Below are positions 338 to 11,017 of a stretch of 28,675 bases of DNA, piece after piece. Every line of letters begins with the position of its first letter. Position 1 is the first letter of the stretch. This stretch comes from Pseudomonadota bacterium. GTDB lineage: Bacteria; Pseudomonadota; Alphaproteobacteria; RF32; CAG-239. The stretch lies in the NCBI GenBank assembly GCA_918234285.1, contig CAKJXZ020000069.1:1-28675 (forward strand), read 5' to 3'. The notes under the pieces were generated by a model. The model saw nothing but the letters and a program-made list of their open reading frames with translations. It was not told the DNA's origin and ran no database searches. Position numbers and translations under genes: made by a program.

Positions 338-1084
338 ATGGTATCCGTGTCACTTAAACAACTTAAAGCAATATTAAACAATGATAAATATCTTCCGTAT
401 GAACAAGACGGCAAGACCTATAATCTTTATGATATGCCCGATGGGTTTGTAATAAAGGGTAATGTGGACTTAAGGGATAAAGGACTTACCGAATTACCTG
501 ATTTATCGAAAGTGATTGTTGAAGGATGTTTTGAGTGTCAGCGCAACAGACTTATTTCTTTGAAAGGCGCACCGCAAAAAGTAACAGGATTCTTTGATTG
601 CCATGAGAATAGTCTTGTATCATTGGAGGGAGCGCCTAAAGAAGTGGGAGAAAACTTCTACTGTTATCAGAATCATTTGGCAACAATGGAGGGAGCTCCA
701 CAAGTAATAGGCGGGGATTTTAATTGTGATTACAATAAGTTAAGTTCATTAAAAGGCGCACCGCAAAAAGTCGGGGGAGAGTTTAATTGTTCCCATAATC
801 CTTGGTTGGAGTCACTTTACGGAATATCGGCAATACCGGTCGGCGGAAAAATATATTGTAACGATGAATTGGGAGAAAAATACGGATTTTCTGATTCGCA
901 AAGTAAGGGTTTTGTTTATGAAGACTTAATTAAAAGTCAGGTTTATAAAAACGAGGTACTTATTGATGATATTATCCGTAAAAAACATACTAAAGAGCAT
1001 GAAGATGTAAAAACGCAAAATCATACTCAATTTAAGGCCGGATATGCGGCGTTTAAGAAAAAACAGGCCGAGGAACGGGAATAG
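338..1084 (+). CDS. 21-aa LRR family protein (5 repeats)
   Basis: Start moved from 188 to ATG 338 behind GGAGG (328-332). N-cap EQDGKTYNLYDMPDGFVIKG, repeats of type xxVGGxFxCxxNxLTSLxGAP, tail EERE. Confidence 0.9.
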   Translation: MVSVSLKQLKAILNNDKYLPYEQDGKTYNLYDMPDGFVIKGNVDLRDKGLTELPDLSKVIVEGCFECQRNRLISLKGAPQKVTGFFDCHENSLVSLEGAPKEVGENFYCYQNHLATMEGAPQVIGGDFNCDYNKLSSLKGAPQKVGGEFNCSHNPWLESLYGISAIPVGGKIYCNDELGEKYGFSDSQSKGFVYEDLIKSQVYKNEVLIDDIIRKKHTKEHEDVKTQNHTQFKAGYAAFKKKQAEERE

Positions 1085-1094
1085 GGGAATAGCC

Positions 1095-1979
1095 ATGGCA
1101 AGACGCTTGGAATATGTGCAGGACGGAAAAACCTATAACCTTTACGATTTACCCGACGGATTCGTAATCAATGGTAATCTGGATTTGCGCGACAGGGGTT
1201 TGACCGAATTGCCCGATTTATCCAAGGTTGTTGTTAAAGGGTTTTTTGATTGCAGCGAAAACAAATTGACTTCTTTAAAAGGGGCACCTAAGGAAGTGGA
1301 GGGACATTTTGATTGCCGGCGTAATCAACTGACTTCTCTGCAGGGAGCATCGCGAAAAGTCGGCGGAAATTTCAGGTGTAGCAATAATGAGCTTACAACG
1401 CTTGAAGGAGCGCCTATAGAAGTCGGTATGGGTTTTCATTGTCACCATAATAAATTGACTACGCTCAAAGGGGTGCCGCAAGCGCTCAGCGACGATTTTG
1501 ATTGCAGCAACAATAACCTTACTTCGCTACGGTGGCTGCCTAAGGAAATCGGCGGCTGGCTTATGTGCAGCGATAATAAGCTGACGGATTTGGAAGGTTC
1601 GCCGCAAACGTTGGGCGGAGGTATGGATTGCAGCTATAACGAGCTCACTTCTTTGGCCGGAGCGCCGCAAAAAACGGGCGGAAACTTTGTTTGCAGCCAT
1701 AATAAGTTGGAATCGCTTTTCGGTGTGCCGGAGATTCCGGATATGTGTGTTTTTCATTGTGATATTGAAGTGGGAGAGAAATACGGATTGGATGAAATTC
1801 CTTTCGGAGTTCAGCTTTGCCAACTTACCCGGAGTCCGCTTTATAAAAGTGAGCTGTCCGCCTATAAAATTCGGCAGAAAAAACACGAGGAACGGGAAAA
1901 GAAAGATGCCGAGACCAAGGCTAAGAATAAAGCCGGATTTGCCGCGTTTAAGAAACAAAAATACGAAGAACGGGAATAA
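1095..1979 (+). CDS. 21-aa LRR family protein (8 repeats)
   Basis: Start moved to ATG 1095 (MARRLEY) behind AGGGG. Same N-cap, repeats and tail. Confidence 0.9.
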   Translation: MARRLEYVQDGKTYNLYDLPDGFVINGNLDLRDRGLTELPDLSKVVVKGFFDCSENKLTSLKGAPKEVEGHFDCRRNQLTSLQGASRKVGGNFRCSNNELTTLEGAPIEVGMGFHCHHNKLTTLKGVPQALSDDFDCSNNNLTSLRWLPKEIGGWLMCSDNKLTDLEGSPQTLGGGMDCSYNELTSLAGAPQKTGGNFVCSHNKLESLFGVPEIPDMCVFHCDIEVGEKYGLDEIPFGVQLCQLTRSPLYKSELSAYKIRQKKHEEREKKDAETKAKNKAGFAAFKKQKYEERE

Positions 1980-1990
1980 GGAGCAGAGAT

Positions 1991-2761
1991 ATGGCGCAAT
2001 TAATCGAAAACTTTAAGTTTGAACAAGACGGGAAAACTTACAGCCTTTATAACTTGCCTGATGGGTTTGTGATTGAAGGCGATGTGGATTTGGAAGGTAA
2101 AGGCCTGACCGAACTGCCTGATTTATCGAAAGTTACGGTAACAGGATATTTTAATTGCTCCAATAATGCTCTTACCTCTTTGCGAGGGGCGCCGCGAGAA
2201 GTTGGCGGAGATTTTGGTTGCTTCTCCAATCAACTGACCTCTTTGCAGGGGGCACCGCAAAAAGTTGGTGGAGGTTTTTGGTGTGAAGATAATAAATTGA
2301 CCACCTTAAAGGGAGCGCCGCAAAAAACCGGCGATAGTTTTGTGTGTAGTAACAATCAACTGACTACGCTGGAGGGGGCACCGAAAGAAGTGGGTGGAGG
2401 TTTCAGTTGCAAGGGTAATGAGTTGACAACGCTCAGGGGAGCGCCGCAGAAGATTACGAGGGATTTTAATTGCGCCGAAAATCCGGACTTATCTTCGTTG
2501 TTCGGAATATCCGAAATGTTGGCAGATAAAAAAATAGATTGCGATTACTGGGTGATGACAAAATACGGTTCTCCTGATCCGGTAAACGGATGTATCAGTT
2601 ATAGTGTTTTAACTGCCAGCGCAAAATATAAGAGCGAGTTAGCCGCATATAATATTAAGAAAAAACATGAGGAACGTATGCAAAAAGAGGCGGAGATGAA
2701 GGCAAAACATAAGTCGGGATTTGCTACGTTCAAAAAAATGAAGGCCGAGGAGCGGGAATAG
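1991..2761 (+). CDS. 21-aa LRR family protein (6 repeats)
   Basis: AAGGAG RBS. Same N-cap, repeats and EERE tail. Confidence 0.9.
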   Translation: MAQLIENFKFEQDGKTYSLYNLPDGFVIEGDVDLEGKGLTELPDLSKVTVTGYFNCSNNALTSLRGAPREVGGDFGCFSNQLTSLQGAPQKVGGGFWCEDNKLTTLKGAPQKTGDSFVCSNNQLTTLEGAPKEVGGGFSCKGNELTTLRGAPQKITRDFNCAENPDLSSLFGISEMLADKKIDCDYWVMTKYGSPDPVNGCISYSVLTASAKYKSELAAYNIKKKHEERMQKEAEMKAKHKSGFATFKKMKAEERE

Positions 2762-2792
2762 AGGCTTTTATTGCTGTTTATAAGGTGTCGAC

Positions 2793-2815
2793 AGCCGTCG
2801 GTACGGGCGGTTTTT
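2793..2815 (+). terminator. Putative intrinsic terminator ending LRR array 1
   Basis: AGCCGTC/GGCGGTT stem with G-U pairs, running into a T tract. Confidence 0.5.
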
Positions 2816-2931
2816 ATCAGTAAAAATTTTACCCGATTTAGGTGGATAAAAAGCAAAAAATACTTTTTATCCGCTAGCGGTTTTGCTATATTTAATCAGT
2901 TTTATTTATAAGTAAATTGAAGAGGTATGAA

Positions 2932-5751
2932 GTGACTGAAGAAATTCAAGAAACACAGGAAGTTAGTGTGGTTAAAACCGATAATATCGCCCCGACCATG
3001 ATTTCGGAAGAAATGCGCCGCAGCTATTTGGATTATGCCATGAGCGTAATCGTTTCGCGTGCGTTGCCGGATGCGCGTGACGGTATGAAACCGGTGCATC
3101 GCCGCATTATTTACGGAATGTATGAAAACGGCTATGATTCGAGCAAACCTTATCGTAAATCGGCGCGTATCGTCGGTGATGTTATGGGTAAATATCACCC
3201 GCACGGTGACAGTTCGATTTATGAAGCAATGGTGCGTATGGCACAGCCTTTCTCCATGCGGGTTACGCTGGTTGACGGCCAGGGTAACTTCGGCTCGATG
3301 GATGGCGACGGCGCCGCGGCCATGCGTTATACCGAAGCGCGTTTGGCTAAGGTTTCCGCTTGCCTGACCGATAACTTGGATGAAGATACCGTCGACTTTA
3401 TGCCGAACTATGATGAATCTTTACAAGAGCCGACCGTATTGCCGGCACGTTTTCCGAACTTATTGGTTAACGGCGGCAGCGGTATTGCCGTAGGTATGGC
3501 TACCAACATTCCGCCACATAATTTGGGCGAAGTAATCGACGCTTGTTGTGCCTATATAGATAATCCGGATATCAGTGTAGAAGAGCTGATTAATATTGTT
3601 CCGGGGCCGGATTTTCCTACCGGCGGTCTGATTTTGGGCTACGGCGGTGCCAAACAGGCATATTTGACCGGTCGCGGCTCGGTAATGATGCGCGCTAAAT
3701 GCTCGATTGAAGAAATCCGCAAAGATAAAGAAGCCATTATCGTGCACGAAGTACCGTATCAAATCAACAAGGCCAATTTGGTGGCGCATATCGCCGAACT
3801 GGTTAAGGATAAGCGCATTGAGGGAATTTCCGATATTCGTGATGAATCCGACCGTCAGGGCGTACGCATCGTGATTGAAATCAAGCGCGATTTTCAGGCC
3901 GATGTGATTTTGAACCAACTCTATAAATACACCGAACTGCAAACCAGTTTCGGTATGAATATGCTGGCGATTAACGGCGGCCGGCCGATGATGATGAATT
4001 TGCGCGACATTATTGCCACCTTTATCGAATTCCGCGAAGAAGTAATTCGTCGCCGCACCGTGTATCGCTTGAATAAGGCGCGTAACCGCGCTCACGTTTT
4101 GGTCGGTTTGGCGATTGCCGTGGAAAATCTCGACCCGGTAATCGAGCTGATTAAAAATGCTCCGACGCCGCAAGACGCGCGTGAACAGTTGGTCAGCCGC
4201 AAATGGCCGGCTGCCGCGATTGAAGATTGGGTTAAACTGATTGACGAGCCGGACAGAAAGGTGGTTGACGGTATTTATATGATGTCGGATGACCAGGCTC
4301 GCGCTATTTTGGATTTGAAACTGCAACGCTTGACCGGTTTGGAACGCGACAAAATTCACGAAGAACTGGTGGATTTGGGCGCGGCGATTAAGGAGTTCCT
4401 GTCTATTCTTTCGAGCCGGGAAAAGCTCTATGGAATTATGCGCGATGAACTGGTGGCGGTTAAAGACGAATACGCCACTCCGCGTATGACCGAAATTCAG
4501 GATATTGAATATAACCAAGATATTGAATCGCTGATTCAGCGTGAAGAAATGGTGGTTACCGTGACCGAAGAAGGTTATATCAAACGCGTACCGCTGAATG
4601 CCTATAAAGCACAAAAACGCGGAGGTAAGGGTAAGTCGGGTATGACTACCAAAGATGAGGATTTTGTTACCCGTCTGTTTGTGGCCAGCACGCACACGCC
4701 GGTACTGTTCTTCTCGAGCCGCGGTATTGTTTATAAGATGAAAGTTTATAAACTGCCGCTCGGTTCGCCGACCTCTAAGGGCAAGCCGTTTATTAACTTG
4801 TTGCCTCTGGAAAATGGCGAAAATATTACCGCCATTATGAAGTTGCCGGAAAATGAGGAGGAGTGCAAGGGCGTTTCAATTGCTTTTGCAACCGCCAGCG
4901 GTAACATTCGTCGCAACAGTTTGATGGACTTTGTCAATGTTCAATCCAACGGTAAGATTGCGATGAAGCTTGATGAAGGCGATAAGCTGATTAACGTGGC
5001 GATGTGTGACGAAAACAACGATATTATGTTGGCAACGCGTCAAGGTAAGTGCATTCGCTTCCCGGTAACCGATGTCCGCGTGTTTGTCGGCCGTAACTCC
5101 ACCGGCGTGCGCGGTATTAAGTTGGCAAAGGGCGATGAAGTTATCTCGATGACCATGCTCAAGCATATTAAGGCGCCGATTGAAGAACGCGATGAGTATT
5201 TGAAAGTCTCCGGTGCCATGAAACGCATTGATGCCGAAAGTGGCGAAACCAGCTGCATTACGGCTGATCAGACCGGCTTATTGAACCTGCTCAGCTTGGA
5301 GAAGTTTGAAGAAATGCAAAAGATGGAAGAATTCATCTTAACCGTGACGGTAACCGGCTACGGCAAGCGTTCTTCTTCGTATGAATATCGCGTGACCGGT
5401 CGTGGCGGTTCGGGTATTGCCAATATGGAAATGTCGCCGCGCAATAAGGAAGTTGTCAGCTCGTTCCCGATTACCGAAGATAAGGATATTATGATGGTAA
5501 CCGACGGCGGTAAGCTTATCAGAATGCCGGTTGATGACATTCGTATTGCCGGTCGTAAGACGCAGGGCGTGATTTTGTTCCGTACTGCCGAAAATGAGAA
5601 CGTTGTTTCGGTAACCAAACTTGATGCCGATGAAGGTACCGACGAGGAAATCGATGAGGAGAACGACAACGTGATTGATACCGAGGCCGAGAATGCGGAA
5701 ATCGCAGCCGAGGCAATCAGCGAGCCGCGTACCGACGAGGCCGACGCCTAA
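2932..5751 (+). CDS. gyrA: DNA gyrase subunit A
   Basis: [26 protein letters not shown], catalytic AAMRYTE and GyrA-box QKRGGKG, which distinguishes it from ParC. Start is probably GTG 2932 after GAGGT (ORF track gives TTG 2917). Confidence 0.97.
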
Positions 5752-5938: not shown

Positions 5939-6838
5939 ATGAAAAAGTTGGTTTTGATTTTAGGACTTTGTTTGAGTTTTGGCGCAAATGCTCGGGCGGA
6001 AGATAATAGTTTTAAGGATTGTGATTTCATTATATATAACAAATGTATTTCTTGCAACACACCTTATGCTTTTGAAGTGGGATATGATGTGAATTGCACG
6101 TCGGTATGTCCTAACCGAGATGTTTTGCATGAGGGTAGCGGTTATTACTCTCGGAAGTTCTGTTTTTTGAAACAATGCCCTGATGATAAACCATATCGCC
6201 ACAGCGATGGCTCATGTTACGAAGATGAAAATCGCGTTCCGAGATGGGATAACGCGTACAAAGGTTTTTATGATATGTTTTCTGATGATAATATTGAAAG
6301 ACAGATACATATTTTGGCGGGCGATAATAATCAATGTTCGCCGAGTGAGCCATTATTTTATGAAAATGAGTGTTTTTCTTGTAATGAAACCCAAAACATT
6401 CCAATTTCAGAAACTGAATGCCGTAAATGTTCAAATCGTCAATACATCTATTCTAAACAATGGAATCGTGGAGAGTGTGTTTTACCGTGTCCGCCCGATA
6501 AACCTTTGAAACGTTGGGATGGAAAATGTTTTTCGTGTGATGAAAAGAAGGTTGTTCCTCTTGAAACATGGTGTAATTTTGATGTTGATTGTGATGTATG
6601 CCCGAACAGAACCATCCTTTATGCAATAGGCGGTAACATTCCGAGTATTCTTAACTGTCCGCTCGATAAACCGCTAATGGACGCTCATGGAACTTGCTAT
6701 TCATGCGAAACCGAACAATACGTTGATGTCAGATGGAATAGTGATTCATGCAACAAAATCTGCCCCAATCGCTATTTAGACACCACCAATGACAGTTGTA
6801 TTCTAAATGGAATGAAATTTAAACCAAATGAAAAATAA
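5939..6838 (+). CDS. Secreted cysteine-rich repeat protein, candidate immunity protein for the convergent lysozyme-like cassette
   Basis: Signal peptide MKKLVLILGLCLSFGANARA. About four repeats of CPxDKPL..G.CxSC...CxxCPNR. AT-rich. The immunity role is inference. Confidence 0.75.
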   Translation: MKKLVLILGLCLSFGANARAEDNSFKDCDFIIYNKCISCNTPYAFEVGYDVNCTSVCPNRDVLHEGSGYYSRKFCFLKQCPDDKPYRHSDGSCYEDENRVPRWDNAYKGFYDMFSDDNIERQIHILAGDNNQCSPSEPLFYENECFSCNETQNIPISETECRKCSNRQYIYSKQWNRGECVLPCPPDKPLKRWDGKCFSCDEKKVVPLETWCNFDVDCDVCPNRTILYAIGGNIPSILNCPLDKPLMDAHGTCYSCETEQYVDVRWNSDSCNKICPNRYLDTTNDSCILNGMKFKPNEK

Positions 6839-6876: not shown

Positions 6877-8046
6877 TTATCTATAAAATTTTCCTTTCAT
6901 ACACATATCAGAAACCCATTGGTTACGCCTCTTTATATCATCACGCCTTTTATCAAGGCGGTGTAGGTTGTCGCAATAATCCCTTTTATTCATTTTTTCG
7001 GCTGCTCTTTTAGCTAGCATCCAACTATCCTTCGGTTCCATATTTCCGGTAAAATGTACATCCATTGTTGCGGCTTGCATCTCCGGTGACATATATAACC
7101 AATTAGTAATGACTTTATTTAGAGTATTCCAACGAGACTCAATATCCTCATTATACAAATCGCTACAATATTCTTGCGGCAATCTTGCATTTGTTTCGGT
7201 TGCATATAATTCTGGCTTAAAATTCGTTGGTAAACTTTTTAACTTTTTTTCTGCTGACAACATTTGCGATTTACTTAGTGATTGTCCGCTCGTTACATCA
7301 ATCCAAGGATGTGTATTGAAGTCATTTTTCATATTATGACCTATACAACCTGTAATATCCCCATTGATATCAGGATAAGGAAATACCATTCCATTATCAT
7401 CAATGGTTCTTTCATATCCCTCTTGTAGAATATGAAAATTACGGAGTTGATTATATGCATCAGATTGAACAAATTGATCGTATGTAGTTTTTTCTACATT
7501 TGGATAACTTGAAACATTAGTATGTACCATATTTTGCCCGAGTGAAGTCGGGGCGATGTATTGAGGTAATAGCGATGCCAGATAACGATTTATCGGCTCC
7601 ATAATCGGTGAAGATGTCGTGTTTGGAGCGATGTTTGCGCTTTGGTTGGTCGGTTGTGAGGCAAAAGCAGATGGGGTTTGTATCTGATACCCCGTCGCCT
7701 TTGACGCACCATATATCGGCGATGATGTATATGCACTTTGCACTTCAAGCGATGTCGTATTCGGCGCGGTAATCGCACCGGCGACGTTTTCTATTGCTCT
7801 GCCCGTAGCACTGCCAGAAGTGTTGTTATTCTGAAAATAACTGCTCGGTTTGCCGACCAAACTTTCGGTGTTGGCTGTATAATCGGAATTTGCAGTGACT
7901 TGCCCGTTATTTGTGTTGTTATTAAGCCGATTTGTTACGTTTTCGATATTTTGCTTAATGTTTGAAGTGCCGAAGCCGTAGTTATTTTCAGGTGAGCCGC
8001 CCCAAAAGTTTGTGCCGAACTGCGGATAGTCTCCACCTTGCAACAA
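6877..8046 (-). CDS. Start-less (probably silent) toxin cassette with a C-terminal T4-type (GH24-like) lysozyme domain
   Basis: Begins with a copy of an internal segment of 8471-9781, followed by an S/T/N-rich linker. Motif EG...PYPDINGDITGCIGH resembles the E...Y-x-D-x-x-G-x-x-T-x-G-x-GH signature of phage lysozymes. TTG start has no SD. Confidence 0.7.
   Translation of the reverse strand: MLQGGDYPQFGTNFWGGSPENNYGFGTSNIKQNIENVTNRLNNNTNNGQVTANSDYTANTESLVGKPSSYFQNNNTSGSATGRAIENVAGAITAPNTTSLEVQSAYTSSPIYGASKATGYQIQTPSAFASQPTNQSANIAPNTTSSPIMEPINRYLASLLPQYIAPTSLGQNMVHTNVSSYPNVEKTTYDQFVQSDAYNQLRNFHILQEGYERTIDDNGMVFPYPDINGDITGCIGHNMKNDFNTHPWIDVTSGQSLSKSQMLSAEKKLKSLPTNFKPELYATETNARLPQEYCSDLYNEDIESRWNTLNKVITNWLYMSPEMQAATMDVHFTGNMEPKDSWMLAKRAAEKMNKRDYCDNLHRLDKRRDDIKRRNQWVSDMCMKGKFYR
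7822..8030. repeat. Direct repeat, copy B (partner 9350-9597)
   Basis: 7919-8030 matches 9486-9597 except for a few mismatches in one cluster. 7822-7921 matches about 9350-9450 more loosely. Confidence 0.95.
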
Positions 8047-8086
8047 AACTTAAAGTATATATTCTAAATATTTTTCAATTTATATA

Positions 8087-8114
8087 TTGACAATTACTTA
8101 AAATATGTTATATT
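8087..8114 (+). promoter_or_regulatory. Sigma70-like promoter for candidate ncRNA2
   Basis: TTGACA-16 nt-TATATT with extended TG. Palindrome TACCTTAAGGTA at 8120-8131, near the expected +1. Confidence 0.65.
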
Positions 8115-8119
8115 TAAAA

Positions 8120-8242
8120 TACCTTAAGGTACTTTCACTTGTAGGAACGAAATATTTGATCGCCTACCTTGTATCCTTGGTCGAGAACCAGCTCTGTCAA
8201 GGGATTGAAAGAGTAAGAGCCCTCGTTGAGGGCACTTTTCTA
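8120..8242 (+). ncRNA. Candidate structured small RNA (ncRNA2), convergent with the toxin stub
   Basis: Outer stem CTTTCA(8132-37)/TGAAAG(8206-11) encloses GTAGG/CCTAC and ATCC-TTGG/TCAA-GGAT hairpins. Terminator GCCCTC-GTT-GAGGGC-ACTTTTCT. No credible ORF. Confidence 0.6.
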
Positions 8243-8244
8243 TT

Positions 8245-8361
8245 TTACCGGTCAATATAGTACATTGTTGAAATAATATTTTCGTCATTCTTAGGAGAGG
8301 TTACTACTCTAAATGGTCCGTTTTTACTCCGCGCCAAATAAACGTTTTGACCTATTGACAT
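8245..8361 (-). pseudogene. 38-codon C-terminal stub of a displaced toxin domain (not in the ORF track)
   Basis: MSIGQNVYLARSKNGPFRVVTSPKNDENIISTMYYIDR*. Three short predicted beta-strands, like the end of the 8471-9781 protein. No SD, and its ATG overlaps the -35 box of the ncRNA1 promoter. Confidence 0.5.
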
Positions 8362-8383
8362 ACATTTCAATTTCAATTAGTAT
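8355..8383 (+). promoter_or_regulatory. Sigma70-like promoter for candidate ncRNA1
   Basis: TTGACA-17 nt-TAGTAT. Confidence 0.65.
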
Positions 8384-8389
8384 AACAAT

Positions 8390-8480
8390 GTCAGATGGCA
8401 GTAAATCGTCCAGCGCTGCGGAGCGGGTATATTTACCTTTATCGATGAGGGAGGTGGGCGTCCCTCCTGACTATTTATTT
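8390..8480 (+). ncRNA. Candidate pseudoknotted small RNA (ncRNA1), convergent with the full-length toxin gene
   Basis: Stems GTCAG/CTGAC (8390-94/8467-71), GTAAAT/ATTTAC, CGCT-GCGG-AGCG and GAGGGA/TCCCTC. Loop TGGGCG (8455-60) can pair with CGTCCA (8407-12). GC-rich island in AT-rich DNA. Confidence 0.6.
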
Positions 8481-9781
8481 CCAAATAATGTTCTATATAA
8501 ATCATCAAGTTTTATTTGATAATCGCTTTTTATCACATTTTGATTCGGTTTGGATGGATTTACACTAACAAATCCTATATCAAGTTTATTCCCCGATGAA
8601 TTTATAACAGCTTGATTTTGGTTGTATTTTGTGCGAAAAATCACCGAATTTGGACTATAAATAGCACGATCAATCGAATCTGCCAATTCTTCTGGTGTCA
8701 TTCCATCACTTATAATCCTTTTTTCATATAATTTTTTGACAACATTTGCAGGAATATACATACGATTATTCTTCATGGTAGGTTGATTTAGATTCTGCCA
8801 GTTATCATTTAAAGTATCTTTGAACTCATTCGATATATTTCTGTATCTTATATCTCTAAAATTATTGCCATTTGTTAGTTGGTTAATTAAATTTTTACGG
8901 CCATTTTTTGCAACATATCTATCCAATCCGGCACTTGCCAATGCACCGCCGGTTAGAGCACTTCTGCTATATCCGACTAACTGTCCGGCTGTCTGCGCCG
9001 CTTCACGCTCTTGCGGGGTTTTCAGTTGCAAATAATCGTTCATCTGTGTATCGTAACCGAGCTTATTGCCGAGGTAATCTAACCCACCGAAGGTCATACC
9101 GTTAACCGTCCGATTCATCCCGTATAAAGCATCCATACCGTACATTAAAATTTGATTTACCGCATTACGCTGCGCTTGCAAAATTTGCGCTTGTTTTTGT
9201 GCTTCTGCAGAATTATATCCGCCGGCATTTTGAATTTCGGATGAATTACCGGATTGAACCGGGTTGTTAATGCCGCTGGTGTTGCTACTCAAAGCGCTTG
9301 TAACGTTATTCTCCCAACTGCCGGTACTGTTATTCGCCACGCCGGCAGAGTTGTTATTCTGGAAATAACTGCTCGGTTTGCCGATTAAGCTTTCGGTGTT
9401 GACTGTATAGTTTGAATTTGCAAAAACTTGACCGTTATTTGTGTTGTTATTAAATCCGTTATTTGTGCCGCCACTAAAACCGCCATTATTAAGCCGATTT
9501 GTTACGTTTTCGATATTTTGCTTAATGTTTGAAGTGCCGAAGCCGTAGTTATTTTCCGGCGTTCCGCCCCAAAAGTTTGTGCCGAACTGCGGATAGTTTT
9601 CTTCGGCTATCCCTTGCTTGGCAAAACCTTCTGCCAATTGATTTTCTCTTGCCAACCGCGCACTTTGATATTCCAACTCATCACGCGTTGAAAATCCGCT
9701 GTGGTCAACACCATAGCTATCCACCCCGCCGCGACCGGATTGATAGCCCGCCAATGTTTTTATTTCGTCCCAAATATCCAT
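8471..9781 (-). CDS. Putative polymorphic toxin: conserved N-terminus, N/G/S-rich linker, variable C-terminal domain (possibly a BECR-fold RNase)
   Basis: Strong RBS AAGGAGG. Modular composition, with an AT-rich 3' end. No signal peptide. The fold guess rests on the helix-helix-multi-strand pattern KRIISDGMTPEELADSIDRAIYSP...IGFVSV...NVIKSDY only. Confidence 0.65.
   Translation of the reverse strand: MDIWDEIKTLAGYQSGRGGVDSYGVDHSGFSTRDELEYQSARLARENQLAEGFAKQGIAEENYPQFGTNFWGGTPENNYGFGTSNIKQNIENVTNRLNNGGFSGGTNNGFNNNTNNGQVFANSNYTVNTESLIGKPSSYFQNNNSAGVANNSTGSWENNVTSALSSNTSGINNPVQSGNSSEIQNAGGYNSAEAQKQAQILQAQRNAVNQILMYGMDALYGMNRTVNGMTFGGLDYLGNKLGYDTQMNDYLQLKTPQEREAAQTAGQLVGYSRSALTGGALASAGLDRYVAKNGRKNLINQLTNGNNFRDIRYRNISNEFKDTLNDNWQNLNQPTMKNNRMYIPANVVKKLYEKRIISDGMTPEELADSIDRAIYSPNSVIFRTKYNQNQAVINSSGNKLDIGFVSVNPSKPNQNVIKSDYQIKLDDLYRTLFGNK
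9350..9597. repeat. Direct repeat, copy A (partner 7822-8030)
   Basis: Encodes YPQFGTNFWGG...KPSSYFQNNN and carries a 39-nt insertion (GGFSGGTNNGFNN) relative to copy B. Confidence 0.95.
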
Positions 9782-10087
9782 ATTTGCCTCCTTTTATAAA
9801 AGTTTTCTATTTTCATTTTTATTACTCCTTTAATTTTATAATTAAATTCTTATATAATAATTTATTTATTATTCTATCGCGACATCAAAACAAACCGCAT
9901 AAGCCCGAAAGCTATTGCGGTTTATCGAAAGAAAACAAACATGATGTCAACAACAGAGACAGTATATGAATAACACAACTTTATATCTCTGTCAAGTTTA
10001 AAATAAGAAAAATATAAAATAAAATGGTGTATAAAATGAAAAATCTTATTTTAGAAAAATGAGTTTGCAATAAATTTTCGTCCGTTG

Positions 10088-10116
10088 TTGACTTTTTGCC
10101 GATTTGTTTTTACCAT
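10088..10116 (+). promoter_or_regulatory. Sigma70-like promoter of endA-tcdA-rnhB
   Basis: TTGACT-17 nt-TACCAT. Confidence 0.55.
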
Positions 10117-10150
10117 ACGGATAAATGTAATGATTAAAGAAAGTGCAAAG

Positions 10151-11017
10151 ATGAAAAAGTTTTTGTTAATAGCCGCAATCGTGGCAATTTTGCCGCTGAC
10201 GGCCAAAGCCATTTGGTTTTGGAATTATGACGAAGATGCCGAACAGCCTGAGGTAAAGGTTTGGGGTAATCGGCACAGCCAGTCTTTTTATGCCGTCAAA
10301 CGCGAAATGCTGAATAAAATTTATTATGACCATCGCGAAACGCTGTATTGCGGCGCCGATTTTACCAAACAAAAAGAGATTATTCGTCCGCGCGGTTTTG
10401 TGTTGCCGGATTTGCGCTCGGTGGAGTTTGATGTTTACGATATTACGCCGGAAGAACTGCAAAAGAAGGCCGAGCGAATGGAGTGGGAACACATTGTACC
10501 GGCGCAGAACTTCGGTAAGACTTTTCCGGAATGGTTTGCAGGTAAAGAGGCTTGCGTTTCCAAAAAGGGTAAAAAATTCAAAGGGCGCGCCTGTGCCGAG
10601 CAGGAAAGCGAAGAATTCCGCTATATGTATACCGATATGTATAATTTGTATCCGGCTATCGGTGCGGTTAATTATTTGCGCGCCAATTATAATTTTACGC
10701 AATTTACCAAGCCGATTAAGCCGACTTTCGGTTCTTGCGGCGGCATGGTAATTTATAAAAACAAGGTCGAGCCGCGCAATGCGGTCAAAGGCTTGATTGC
10801 CCGCACGTATCTTTATATGCAATATACTTATCCGCGTTATCGTATCAGTGAAAATATGGCCTCGCTTTTGAATGTGTGGAACAAGCAATTTCCGGTTACA
10901 CCGTGGGAATGTGAGCGCGCTTATCGCATTGAAAAAGTACAGGGTAACGCTAACGAGATTGTTAAGCCGCTGTGCCTACAGGCCGGAATGTACGGGGACA
11001 GGCCGAGCCGAAAATGA
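10151..11017 (+). CDS. endA: Secreted endonuclease I (EndA/Dns family)
   Basis: Signal peptide from MKKFLL (ATG 10151). TLYCG, RMEWEHIVPA, DMYNLYPAIGAVN, KGLIARTYLYM and WECER motifs. Confidence 0.9.
   Translation: MKKFLLIAAIVAILPLTAKAIWFWNYDEDAEQPEVKVWGNRHSQSFYAVKREMLNKIYYDHRETLYCGADFTKQKEIIRPRGFVLPDLRSVEFDVYDITPEELQKKAERMEWEHIVPAQNFGKTFPEWFAGKEACVSKKGKKFKGRACAEQESEEFRYMYTDMYNLYPAIGAVNYLRANYNFTQFTKPIKPTFGSCGGMVIYKNKVEPRNAVKGLIARTYLYMQYTYPRYRISENMASLLNVWNKQFPVTPWECERAYRIEKVQGNANEIVKPLCLQAGMYGDRPSRK

Follow-up and report, generated by a model that had tools for sequence, protein, structure and literature searches.

What takes the place of the immunity gene behind toxin cassettes that no protein gene follows? 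This question is raised by positions 8047-8470 of a 28,675-nucleotide stretch of alphaproteobacterial DNA (contig CAKJXZ020000069.1 of assembly GCA_918234285.1; hereafter, the window). This 424-nt gap holds two plus-strand genes devoid of an open reading frame (ORF), each with promoter-like and terminator-like sites, and each converging on the 3' end of a minus-strand cassette for a toxin C-terminal domain (CT). Unit 2 faces a full-length polymorphic-type toxin of 436 aa (ORF search, 8471..9781, minus strand), whose variable CT, the last ~150 aa, is here called CT Y. Unit 1 faces a stub of 43 aa, or 38 codons from an internal ATG (ORF search, 8245..8376, minus strand), related to a second domain, CT X. 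A first-pass annotation of this DNA had proposed that structured small RNAs occupy the immunity-gene slot of these modules. The gap does contain two independent structured noncoding RNA genes, and each RNA constantly accompanies one toxin-domain family, CT X in the case of RNA-1 and the CT Y superfamily in that of RNA-2. The part of the proposal that stands is thus the presence of conserved, covarying noncoding RNAs, each tied to one toxin-domain family in the position of a protein gene; that they act there as antitoxins is a more tentative reading.

No ORF of 60 aa or more lies within 8047-8470, in agreement with the earlier claim that neither the 436-aa gene nor the stub is followed by a protein gene. 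That each ORF-less unit has its own TTGACA promoter was likewise borne out: promoter-like sites are found on the plus strand at 8087-8114 for RNA-1 (TTGACA-16-TATATT, 11/12, TG-extended) and at 8355-8383 for RNA-2 (TTGACA-17-TAGTAT, 10/12), and these are the two best plus-strand sites of the region. Each is followed by a terminator-like hairpin on the same strand (8219-8233 and 8449-8468). Over the whole region, promoter-like sites are in no excess (17, versus 16.5 ± 4.1 in shuffled sequences), and terminator-like sites number 9 versus 4.0 ± 1.7. The strong folding that had been ascribed to both units did not hold up, as their energies are no better than those of shuffled sequences for either 8120-8245 (z = -1.08; 23 of 200 shuffles equally good) or 8388-8480 (z = -0.92; 35 of 200). 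Since the single-sequence energies are not significant, the case is carried by comparative evidence. The first-pass annotation had also suggested comparing the DNA downstream of the toxin domains with Rfam, where no family matched either RNA: the window gave 0 matches to Rfam 15 at gathering thresholds, and permissive E-values added only chance-level matches (E up to 10 near the gap and up to 1 in six related loci). Comparison of four sets of DNA contigs with the window yielded strain variants, one upstream break point at 8390, and little more.

Unit 1 (~8120..8246, plus strand) is one module of a previously undescribed RNA family, RNA-1. Of the 49 other genomes in the genus, 12 conserve the DNA of the gap in pieces, and the RNA-1 promoter is kept at 16 places in 12 same-genus genomes. 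These 16 aligned places have in common the promoter, a 5' hairpin, one to four tandem modules of ~85 nt, and a GC-rich terminator; across the family, arrays contain from one to at least six modules and end in strong GC hairpins with U-tracts. The module folds as a three-way junction made up of P1, a P2 whose loop is conserved, the invariant GUAU, and a P3 whose tip varies. In the window, a 5' hairpin (8120-8131) precedes a single module (8132-8211), in which P1 is formed by 8132-8137/8206-8211, P2 by 8141-8145/8163-8167 with an inner part at 8148-8150/8160-8162, and P3 by 8174-8179/8198-8203, with the GUAU at 8171-8174. The terminator hairpin at 8219-8233 and a U-rich tail to ~8246 close the gene. 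Modules range in length from 79 to 89 nt, not in steps of three, and have no conserved start codon, both of which argue against coding.

Covariation in RNA-1 was assessed on a MAFFT alignment of 18 trimmed modules that was not fitted to any structure. On a first, untrimmed module alignment, RNAalifold had recovered P2 alone, with P1 and P3 misaligned, and trimming solved this. In the trimmed alignment, 88.0% of cells pair, compared with 78.9 ± 1.0% in shuffles, and 18 of the 29 pairs change on both sides, which was reached by 0 of 500 shuffles; slid controls, with partners shifted by one to three columns, gave 40-58% pairing. Across 50 genomes of the genus, a covariance model of the module, R1, detects 32 modules, located in 17 of them. 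Its single match in the source genome is unit 1 itself (8130-8213, E = 1.3e-14), the only match in the window with an E-value below 1. Among 26 matches outside the seed loci, on a model-fitted alignment, 93.5% of cells pair versus 73.4%, with changes on both sides in 22 of 29 pairs. RNA-1 is therefore under selection for structure. The full sets comprise more than 90 RNA-1 modules and more than 60 copies of RNA-2, the family of unit 2.

Unit 2 (8390..8479, plus strand) belongs to a second previously undescribed family, RNA-2, which has a pseudoknotted fold of ~90-150 nt. Features common to its copies are a promoter, P1, a conserved GAAG.GCAGAAA, P2, a variable hairpin, GAUGA followed by P4, and a U-tract. 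The window copy comprises P1 (8390-8394/8467-8471), P2 (8398-8401/8416-8419), the P3 hairpin (8426-8429/8434-8437), P4 (8447-8452/8461-8466), a pseudoknot between 8407-8412 and 8455-8460, and a U-rich tail (8472-8479); P1 and the tail overlap the stop codon and last two codons of the 436-aa toxin. The sequence of the closing helix P1 differs almost everywhere, and TTGACA..TAnnnT sites stand ahead of RNA-2 copies in other genomes, where the upstream DNA is unrelated. A close copy of unit 2 occurs only in genome G016 (and on a near-identical metagenome contig), directly after a 74%-identical CT Y. The unit 2 sequences of the source genome and G016 are identical at 78 of 85 positions, compared with 76.7% identity in the adjacent toxin DNA and 60% at its third codon positions. 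By our reading, five of the six core differences between the two fit one hairpin: a compensatory pair accounts for two of them, loop positions for another two, and a change from G-U to G-C for the fifth. The DNA upstream of unit 2 differs among the three contexts.

On an unfitted alignment of 18 RNA-2 copies, 84.8% of cells pair versus 70.1%, with a covariation score of 0.408 versus 0.175, and slid controls pair in 39-49%. With 27 mostly non-seed matches, pairing rises to 95.2% versus 75.3%, and both partners change in 15 of 21 pairs. The pseudoknot, in which the P2 loop pairs with the P4 loop, covaries as well (a mean of 5.0 nt for own pairs versus 3.75 for cross pairs). With the corresponding covariance model, R2, 64 copies were detected in the family, coming from 45 of 151 genomes and 13 of 23 genera, and the source genome has one match (8383-8477, E = 3.6e-12). 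RNA-2 is thus also under selection for structure. Covariation among homologs, which the first-pass annotation had named as a test, was therefore found for both units, and both are real structured RNAs.

The genomic partner of RNA-1 was evident from its neighborhood. Nearly every RNA-1 array meets, to the right of its terminator and on the other strand, the 3' end of the same ~120-aa domain, CT X (consensus ..MKNHNGEPVVLQRGEAI..NYGLDKxIYKH..ISSMYY), of which an intact 160-aa version lies at 860..1342 of locus L036. An array accompanies each of the 11 full-length CT X copies of the genus; R1 recognizes ten of these arrays, and the other is marked by a divergent module. When CT X loci from species genomes were searched, R1 modules were present in 20 of 21, with all 39 matches on the opposite strand, and the 21st carries a divergent module recognized by eye. 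Further CT X loci, which cover 8 genera and include the most divergent copies, had an R1 match in 29 of 29 cases, compared with 2 of 28 control loci of the other toxin family. By a script count, 62 of 62 CT X 3' ends, 45 of them non-redundant, are followed by a module, which starts 9-163 nt (median, 30) beyond the stop codon. At all 45, the slot after CT X is filled only by the RNA gene. No protein gene lies between CT X and the next cassette, and there is no room for one. Of 283 genomes of the order, 37 have CT X itself, and these fall in 8 of 24 genera. By eye, module type and CT X subtype look partly correlated, as linkage alone would give.

The stub in the window corresponds to the last 37 codons of CT X (homology at 8248-8361; profile positions 135-172, E = 6.3e-12) and is a 3' remnant of a CT X toxin domain, not a gene in its own right. 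Unit 1 is accordingly an orphan RNA-1 beside a deleted CT X; the source genome has RNA-1 and no intact CT X. RNA-1 without an intact CT X is found in the window and at no fewer than eight other places, where a stub, a fragment, or no CT X is left. In one locus, a main CT X is followed by three successive units of a CT X fragment and an intact RNA gene, which is the pattern of orphan immunity genes.

Several further arrangements of RNA-1 were observed. The longest array (L144, G121:C70, 2041-2641) has six adjacent modules after a divergent CT X and a seventh ~550 nt further on. A variant RNA-1 gene, with one module and a conserved 3' part of ~180 nt before the terminator, occurs in L059, L060, L061, and L063 (G064:C14, G033:C3, G070:C2, and G004:C17); it adjoins an intact CT X only in G070 and follows a Cys-rich protein gene in G064 and G004. 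In the window, the RNA-1 promoter stands back to back with the start of an orphan cassette at 8046, and a conserved block (AACTTAAAGTATATAT-like), found at 8047-8062 and at 16 related places, connects the RNA-1 promoter region to the start of the next orphan cassette. This block may mark a recombination boundary of cassettes.

The toxins had been described as nuclease-like, and this is supported for CT X only, at moderate fold scores. CT X has no match in Pfam. A profile search of 1.84 billion representatives yielded 129 relatives, some within very long proteins and one carrying LPD38, and all those looked up are named hypothetical. A structure model built from 59 sequences reached a pLDDT of 96.2; a first model from 9 sequences (pLDDT 48) was discarded. 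With Foldseek, the sole match at E ≤ 0.001 was 7m5f_C, the CdiA-CT of Serratia marcescens BWH57 (E = 7.6e-5; TM 0.42/0.49). VIA-align ranked BrnT first (Z 6.0; root mean square deviation, 3.2; 74 aligned), followed by 7m5f_C (5.7) and RelE (5.0), with colicin D, colicin E5, and CdiA tRNases at lower ranks. The authors of the BWH57 structure assign this CdiA-CT to the BECR fold, with the same structural neighbors (PMC8616854). Weak matches to PBECR1, PBECR3, and HigB were obtained for 2, 1, and 1 of the 59 CT X family members, respectively, and the family has invariant His, Glu, Arg, and Lys residues. We read CT X, on these moderate scores, as a predicted BECR-type RNase domain. By comparison, CT Y, the CT of the 436-aa protein, has no sequence match in Pfam, NCBIfam, or the PDB; its protein-atlas rows (PBECR1, Ntox35, and EndoU) score 0.76-0.88, below the 0.9 line, and are leads only.

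RNA-2 shows a corresponding association with CT Y. A profile of CT Y and its distant relatives detects the CT Y superfamily in 37 genomes, out of 283 for the order, and in 11 of 24 genera; downstream of these domains, a diverged relative of unit 2 is found. R2 matches 23 of 28 CT Y-superfamily loci, 17 of these 23 being seeds, versus 1 of 22 control loci, and RNA-2 always lies on the strand opposite the domain. Three arrangements were seen. In the first, which includes the window, RNA-2 ends within a few tens of nucleotides of the toxin stop codon. In the second, it is embedded antisense in a longer ORF just after the domain, for example that of a 659-aa protein. In the third, seen in a clade termed Y', it lies directly upstream of, and on the same strand as, a gene for a protein of ~200 aa that is convergent on the toxin. 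Scanning of metagenomes with the CT Y protein found no relative, a metagenome scan with a DNA pattern found one contig, whose copy is identical to that of G016 and adds no new variation, and scans of viral contigs with two alignments (A6 and A2) found no match.

The embedded copies were seen at seven loci. In L172, an ORF of 659 aa (922..2901, plus strand) contains an RNA-2 gene and its promoter in antisense (R2 match at 1919-2021, minus strand), and the same holds for L158, L163, L164, L168, L173, and L176. The RNA lies immediately after the CT Y-like domain, in a linker rich in Ser, Thr, and Asn. One and the same stretch of DNA appears to be constrained both as RNA and as protein. On the metagenome contig of locus L111 (445-660, minus strand), a gene for a 71-aa helix-turn-helix protein, excisionase- or AlpA-like by eye, lies just upstream of RNA-2 on the same strand; truncated remnants of this gene are present at cassette junctions in L036 (~1360-1440) and L007.

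Given this gene neighborhood, we propose that each RNA confers immunity to its domain, acting as an antitoxin in a manner resembling type III toxin-antitoxin systems. We put the chance of this a little short of even, and higher for RNA-1 than for RNA-2. In such a model, each RNA would be transcribed constitutively from its own sigma-70-type promoter toward the 3' end of the opposite-strand CT cassette and would engage the toxin domain in the cytoplasm by forming a tight complex of the pseudo-substrate or product kind, as type III antitoxin RNAs do. The RNA would protect its producer and, as an orphan, would protect against the toxins of neighbors; in the window, the toxin countered by RNA-2 would be the intact one of 436 aa. 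RNA-1 persists beside decayed toxin fragments, as orphan immunity genes do.

Among known systems, pore-forming colicins have an immunity gene that is convergent on the toxin gene and has its own constitutive promoter. The convergent partner genes described here, proposed to be constitutive, resemble it in both respects; the colicin immunity product, in contrast, is a membrane protein. In type III systems, the toxin is a ToxN/AbiQ-type endoribonuclease, which the antitoxin RNA binds and inhibits and which processes that RNA. The fold of ToxN is other than BECR-type, and the repeats of type III antitoxins are ~36-45 nt. The likeness to type III systems (ToxIN, CptIN, and TenpIN) lies in the pairing of a protein RNase toxin with a structured RNA, pseudoknot-forming or repeated, and no protein antitoxin, and RNA-1 is tandemly repeated as ToxI is. 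Such repeats, pseudoknots, and RNA-protein complexes are described in abstracts of the type III literature (PMC8860590, PMC12283969, and PMC13682666). Unlike in those systems, the toxin here is the C-terminal domain of a secreted polymorphic toxin, with CT X predicted to be BECR-type; the modules are ~85-nt three-way junctions in 1 to ≥6 copies; and the RNA gene is convergent with its own promoter, whereas the type III RNA lies upstream in the same operon, with a terminator between it and the toxin gene. At the loci whose coordinates were compared, both RNAs are encoded on the strand opposite the toxin domain and beyond its 3' end, and the listed structural matches of the CT X model include no type III toxin, the best being BECR-fold toxins. 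Because toxin fold and gene order differ, neither RNA belongs to the type III families.

The closest structural matches, the CdiA-CT(BWH57)/CdiI pair and the BECR RNases BrnT, RelE, and colicins D and E5, differ in that they are neutralized by proteins, and their sequence similarity to CT X is undetectable apart from the weak matches given above. Toxins of the CdiA-CT(BWH57) type are described as RNases needing a tightly bound inhibitor (PMC8616854). In genetic organization, the family resembles the CDI, Rhs, and MafB polymorphic toxins, with a conserved N-terminal region and swappable CTs, orphan cassettes at conserved junctions, one partner gene after every CT, and arrays of decayed CT fragments that each keep their partner. 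It departs from them in that CT X, like most CT Y relatives, is partnered by an opposite-strand RNA gene, not a protein gene. To our knowledge, the characterized immunity factors of polymorphic and contact-dependent toxins are all proteins. RNA immunity to polymorphic toxins was not found in a literature search covering titles and the openings of abstracts.

Several observations weigh against a role in immunity. Tight linkage would be expected equally of a regulator or a cofactor. The BECR assignment of CT X is moderate (VIA Z ≤ 6.0; one Foldseek match with E ≤ 0.001), and CT Y has no detectable relation to CT X (hhalign probability of 9.6% outside the common junction). In the Y' clade, RNA-2 precedes the ~200-aa gene, and its P1 and U-tract come right ahead of the ribosome-binding site of that gene, an arrangement that looks like a leader or attenuator; RNA-2 is upstream of such a gene in 15 loci (6 and 9 further), most copies, that of the window included, being placed otherwise. 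The ~200-aa protein is present in 8 of 8 Y' loci, 2 of which have no R2 match, and it could be the real immunity factor there. No homolog of this convergent protein (214 aa) was found in the source genome.

These Y' loci support the main alternative, in which both RNAs are cis-acting regulators: the fold, especially that of RNA-2, would be a sensor or attenuator, with the closing helix and U-tract as a conditional terminator whose read-through drives the downstream immunity protein gene where there is one, while antisense transcription into the toxin would set its expression everywhere. The convergent geometry, by which any read-through is antisense to the toxin, fits this explanation, as does the compact, pseudoknotted, aptamer-like fold of RNA-2 with its invariant nucleotides, which recalls riboswitch-like 5' leaders with a terminator-like P1. 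Unlike such leaders, RNA-2 has no Rfam match, its context implies no ligand, and most of its copies have no downstream gene, the leader position being confined to the 15 loci. Furthermore, no examined RNA-1 array precedes a protein gene, the arrays finish in strong terminators, and neither the multiplication of tandem modules nor the survival of intact orphan RNA genes beside decayed toxin fragments is expected of an attenuator. We consider cis regulation unlikely overall, while granting it an appreciable probability, and for RNA-2 it is a serious rival to immunity.

The strict pairing of RNA and domain would fit any obligate partnership, including one in which the RNA is a cofactor or chaperone needed for folding, stability, export, or activation of the toxin and not for its inhibition. 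Such a role is improbable, as orphan RNAs stay intact where the toxin has been deleted, both in the window and at other loci, and the source genome keeps RNA-1 with no intact CT X. That the units encode small immunity peptides is very improbable: small ORFs exist, such as those of 51 and 68 aa on the plus strand and one of 17 codons in unit 2 that by our reading is open in two genomes, but the candidates are not frame-conserved between genomes and were rejected as genes, helix substitutions are compensatory, and RNA-1 modules have the lengths and lack the start codon noted above. Scarcely any weight attaches to passive DNA, that is, shared bidirectional terminators or recombination scars hitchhiking with cassettes. 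In its favor, the hairpins could stop transcription from both strands, and the next orphan cassette has its recombination junction directly against the block with the RNA-1 promoter. Helices that lie well away from the terminators nevertheless covary across 8 and 13 genera, which shows selection on RNA structure.

The setting of the two RNAs is that of a polymorphic toxin family. The source genome (2.0 Mb, 43% G+C, 71 contigs, the window being contig C69) has its related loci in metagenome-assembled genomes from gut and rumen. The 436-aa toxin consists of a conserved N-terminal region, a linker rich in Asn, Gly, and Ser, a pre-toxin region closing at an ..ALTGGALA.. junction, and the variable CT Y. 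Its N-terminal region recurs at six more places on contig C12 of the same genome and is present in 29 of 36 same-genus genomes and in 0 of 24 genomes of other families. Cassette junctions lie at ..NYPQFGTNFWGG.. and ..ALTGGALA... The constant N-terminal region, variable CTs, and 5'-truncated orphan cassettes with a common junction are those of polymorphic toxins. An immunity protein gene directly follows the CT in the other cassettes, but not CT X or the CT Y of the window. At two C12 loci, a small membrane or Cys-rich protein gene follows each toxin cassette on the same strand, which is the usual immunity arrangement. These loci, L001 (C12:44000-56000) and L002 (C12:78000-90000), contain orphan cassettes followed by such genes, and the main toxin of L002 is split into ORFs of 217 and 221 aa, possibly by a frameshift.

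The neighboring orphan cassette in the window (389 aa from a TTG, 6877..8046, minus strand) is 5'-truncated, shares a recombination region with aa 62-185 of the 436-aa toxin (7708-8031, 75% identity), and has a different CT. Its slot holds a convergent protein gene, as had been noted: a 299-aa Cys-rich ORF with a signal-peptide-like N terminus (5939..6838, plus strand), for which Pfam and NCBIfam searches gave nothing informative. The lysozyme identity previously given to the 389-aa CT is supported by no Pfam, NCBIfam, or PDB sequence match. The 299-aa protein has a near-identical signal-peptide-like N terminus (MKKLVLILGL..ANARA.DN) to that of a 148-aa protein whose gene closes another toxin locus (L002, 7817-8263, minus strand). 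Housekeeping-type genes flank the region, among them a 944-aa ORF that is GyrA-like by eye (2917-5751, plus strand) and a gene for an Endonuclease I family protein (10085-11017, plus strand; Pfam PF04231, E = 7.2e-27).

The wider picture that these loci suggest is one in which secreted antibacterial toxins of gut Alphaproteobacteria would be neutralized by RNA and not by protein, with two unrelated RNA families serving two toxin-domain families. RNA-1 modules would be swappable, stackable units and the array an immunity repertoire, and RNA-2 would be kept by its domain even antisense within coding sequence. We hold this picture as possible, at rather less than an even chance. If the RNAs do neutralize the toxins, the type III antitoxin principle would reach into interbacterial warfare, two new protein-binding RNA folds would be added, and searches for immunity genes that consider ORFs only would be missing a class of partners. 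Even if their function is regulatory, RNA-1 and RNA-2 are two new, well-supported RNA families, each with a defined genetic partner.

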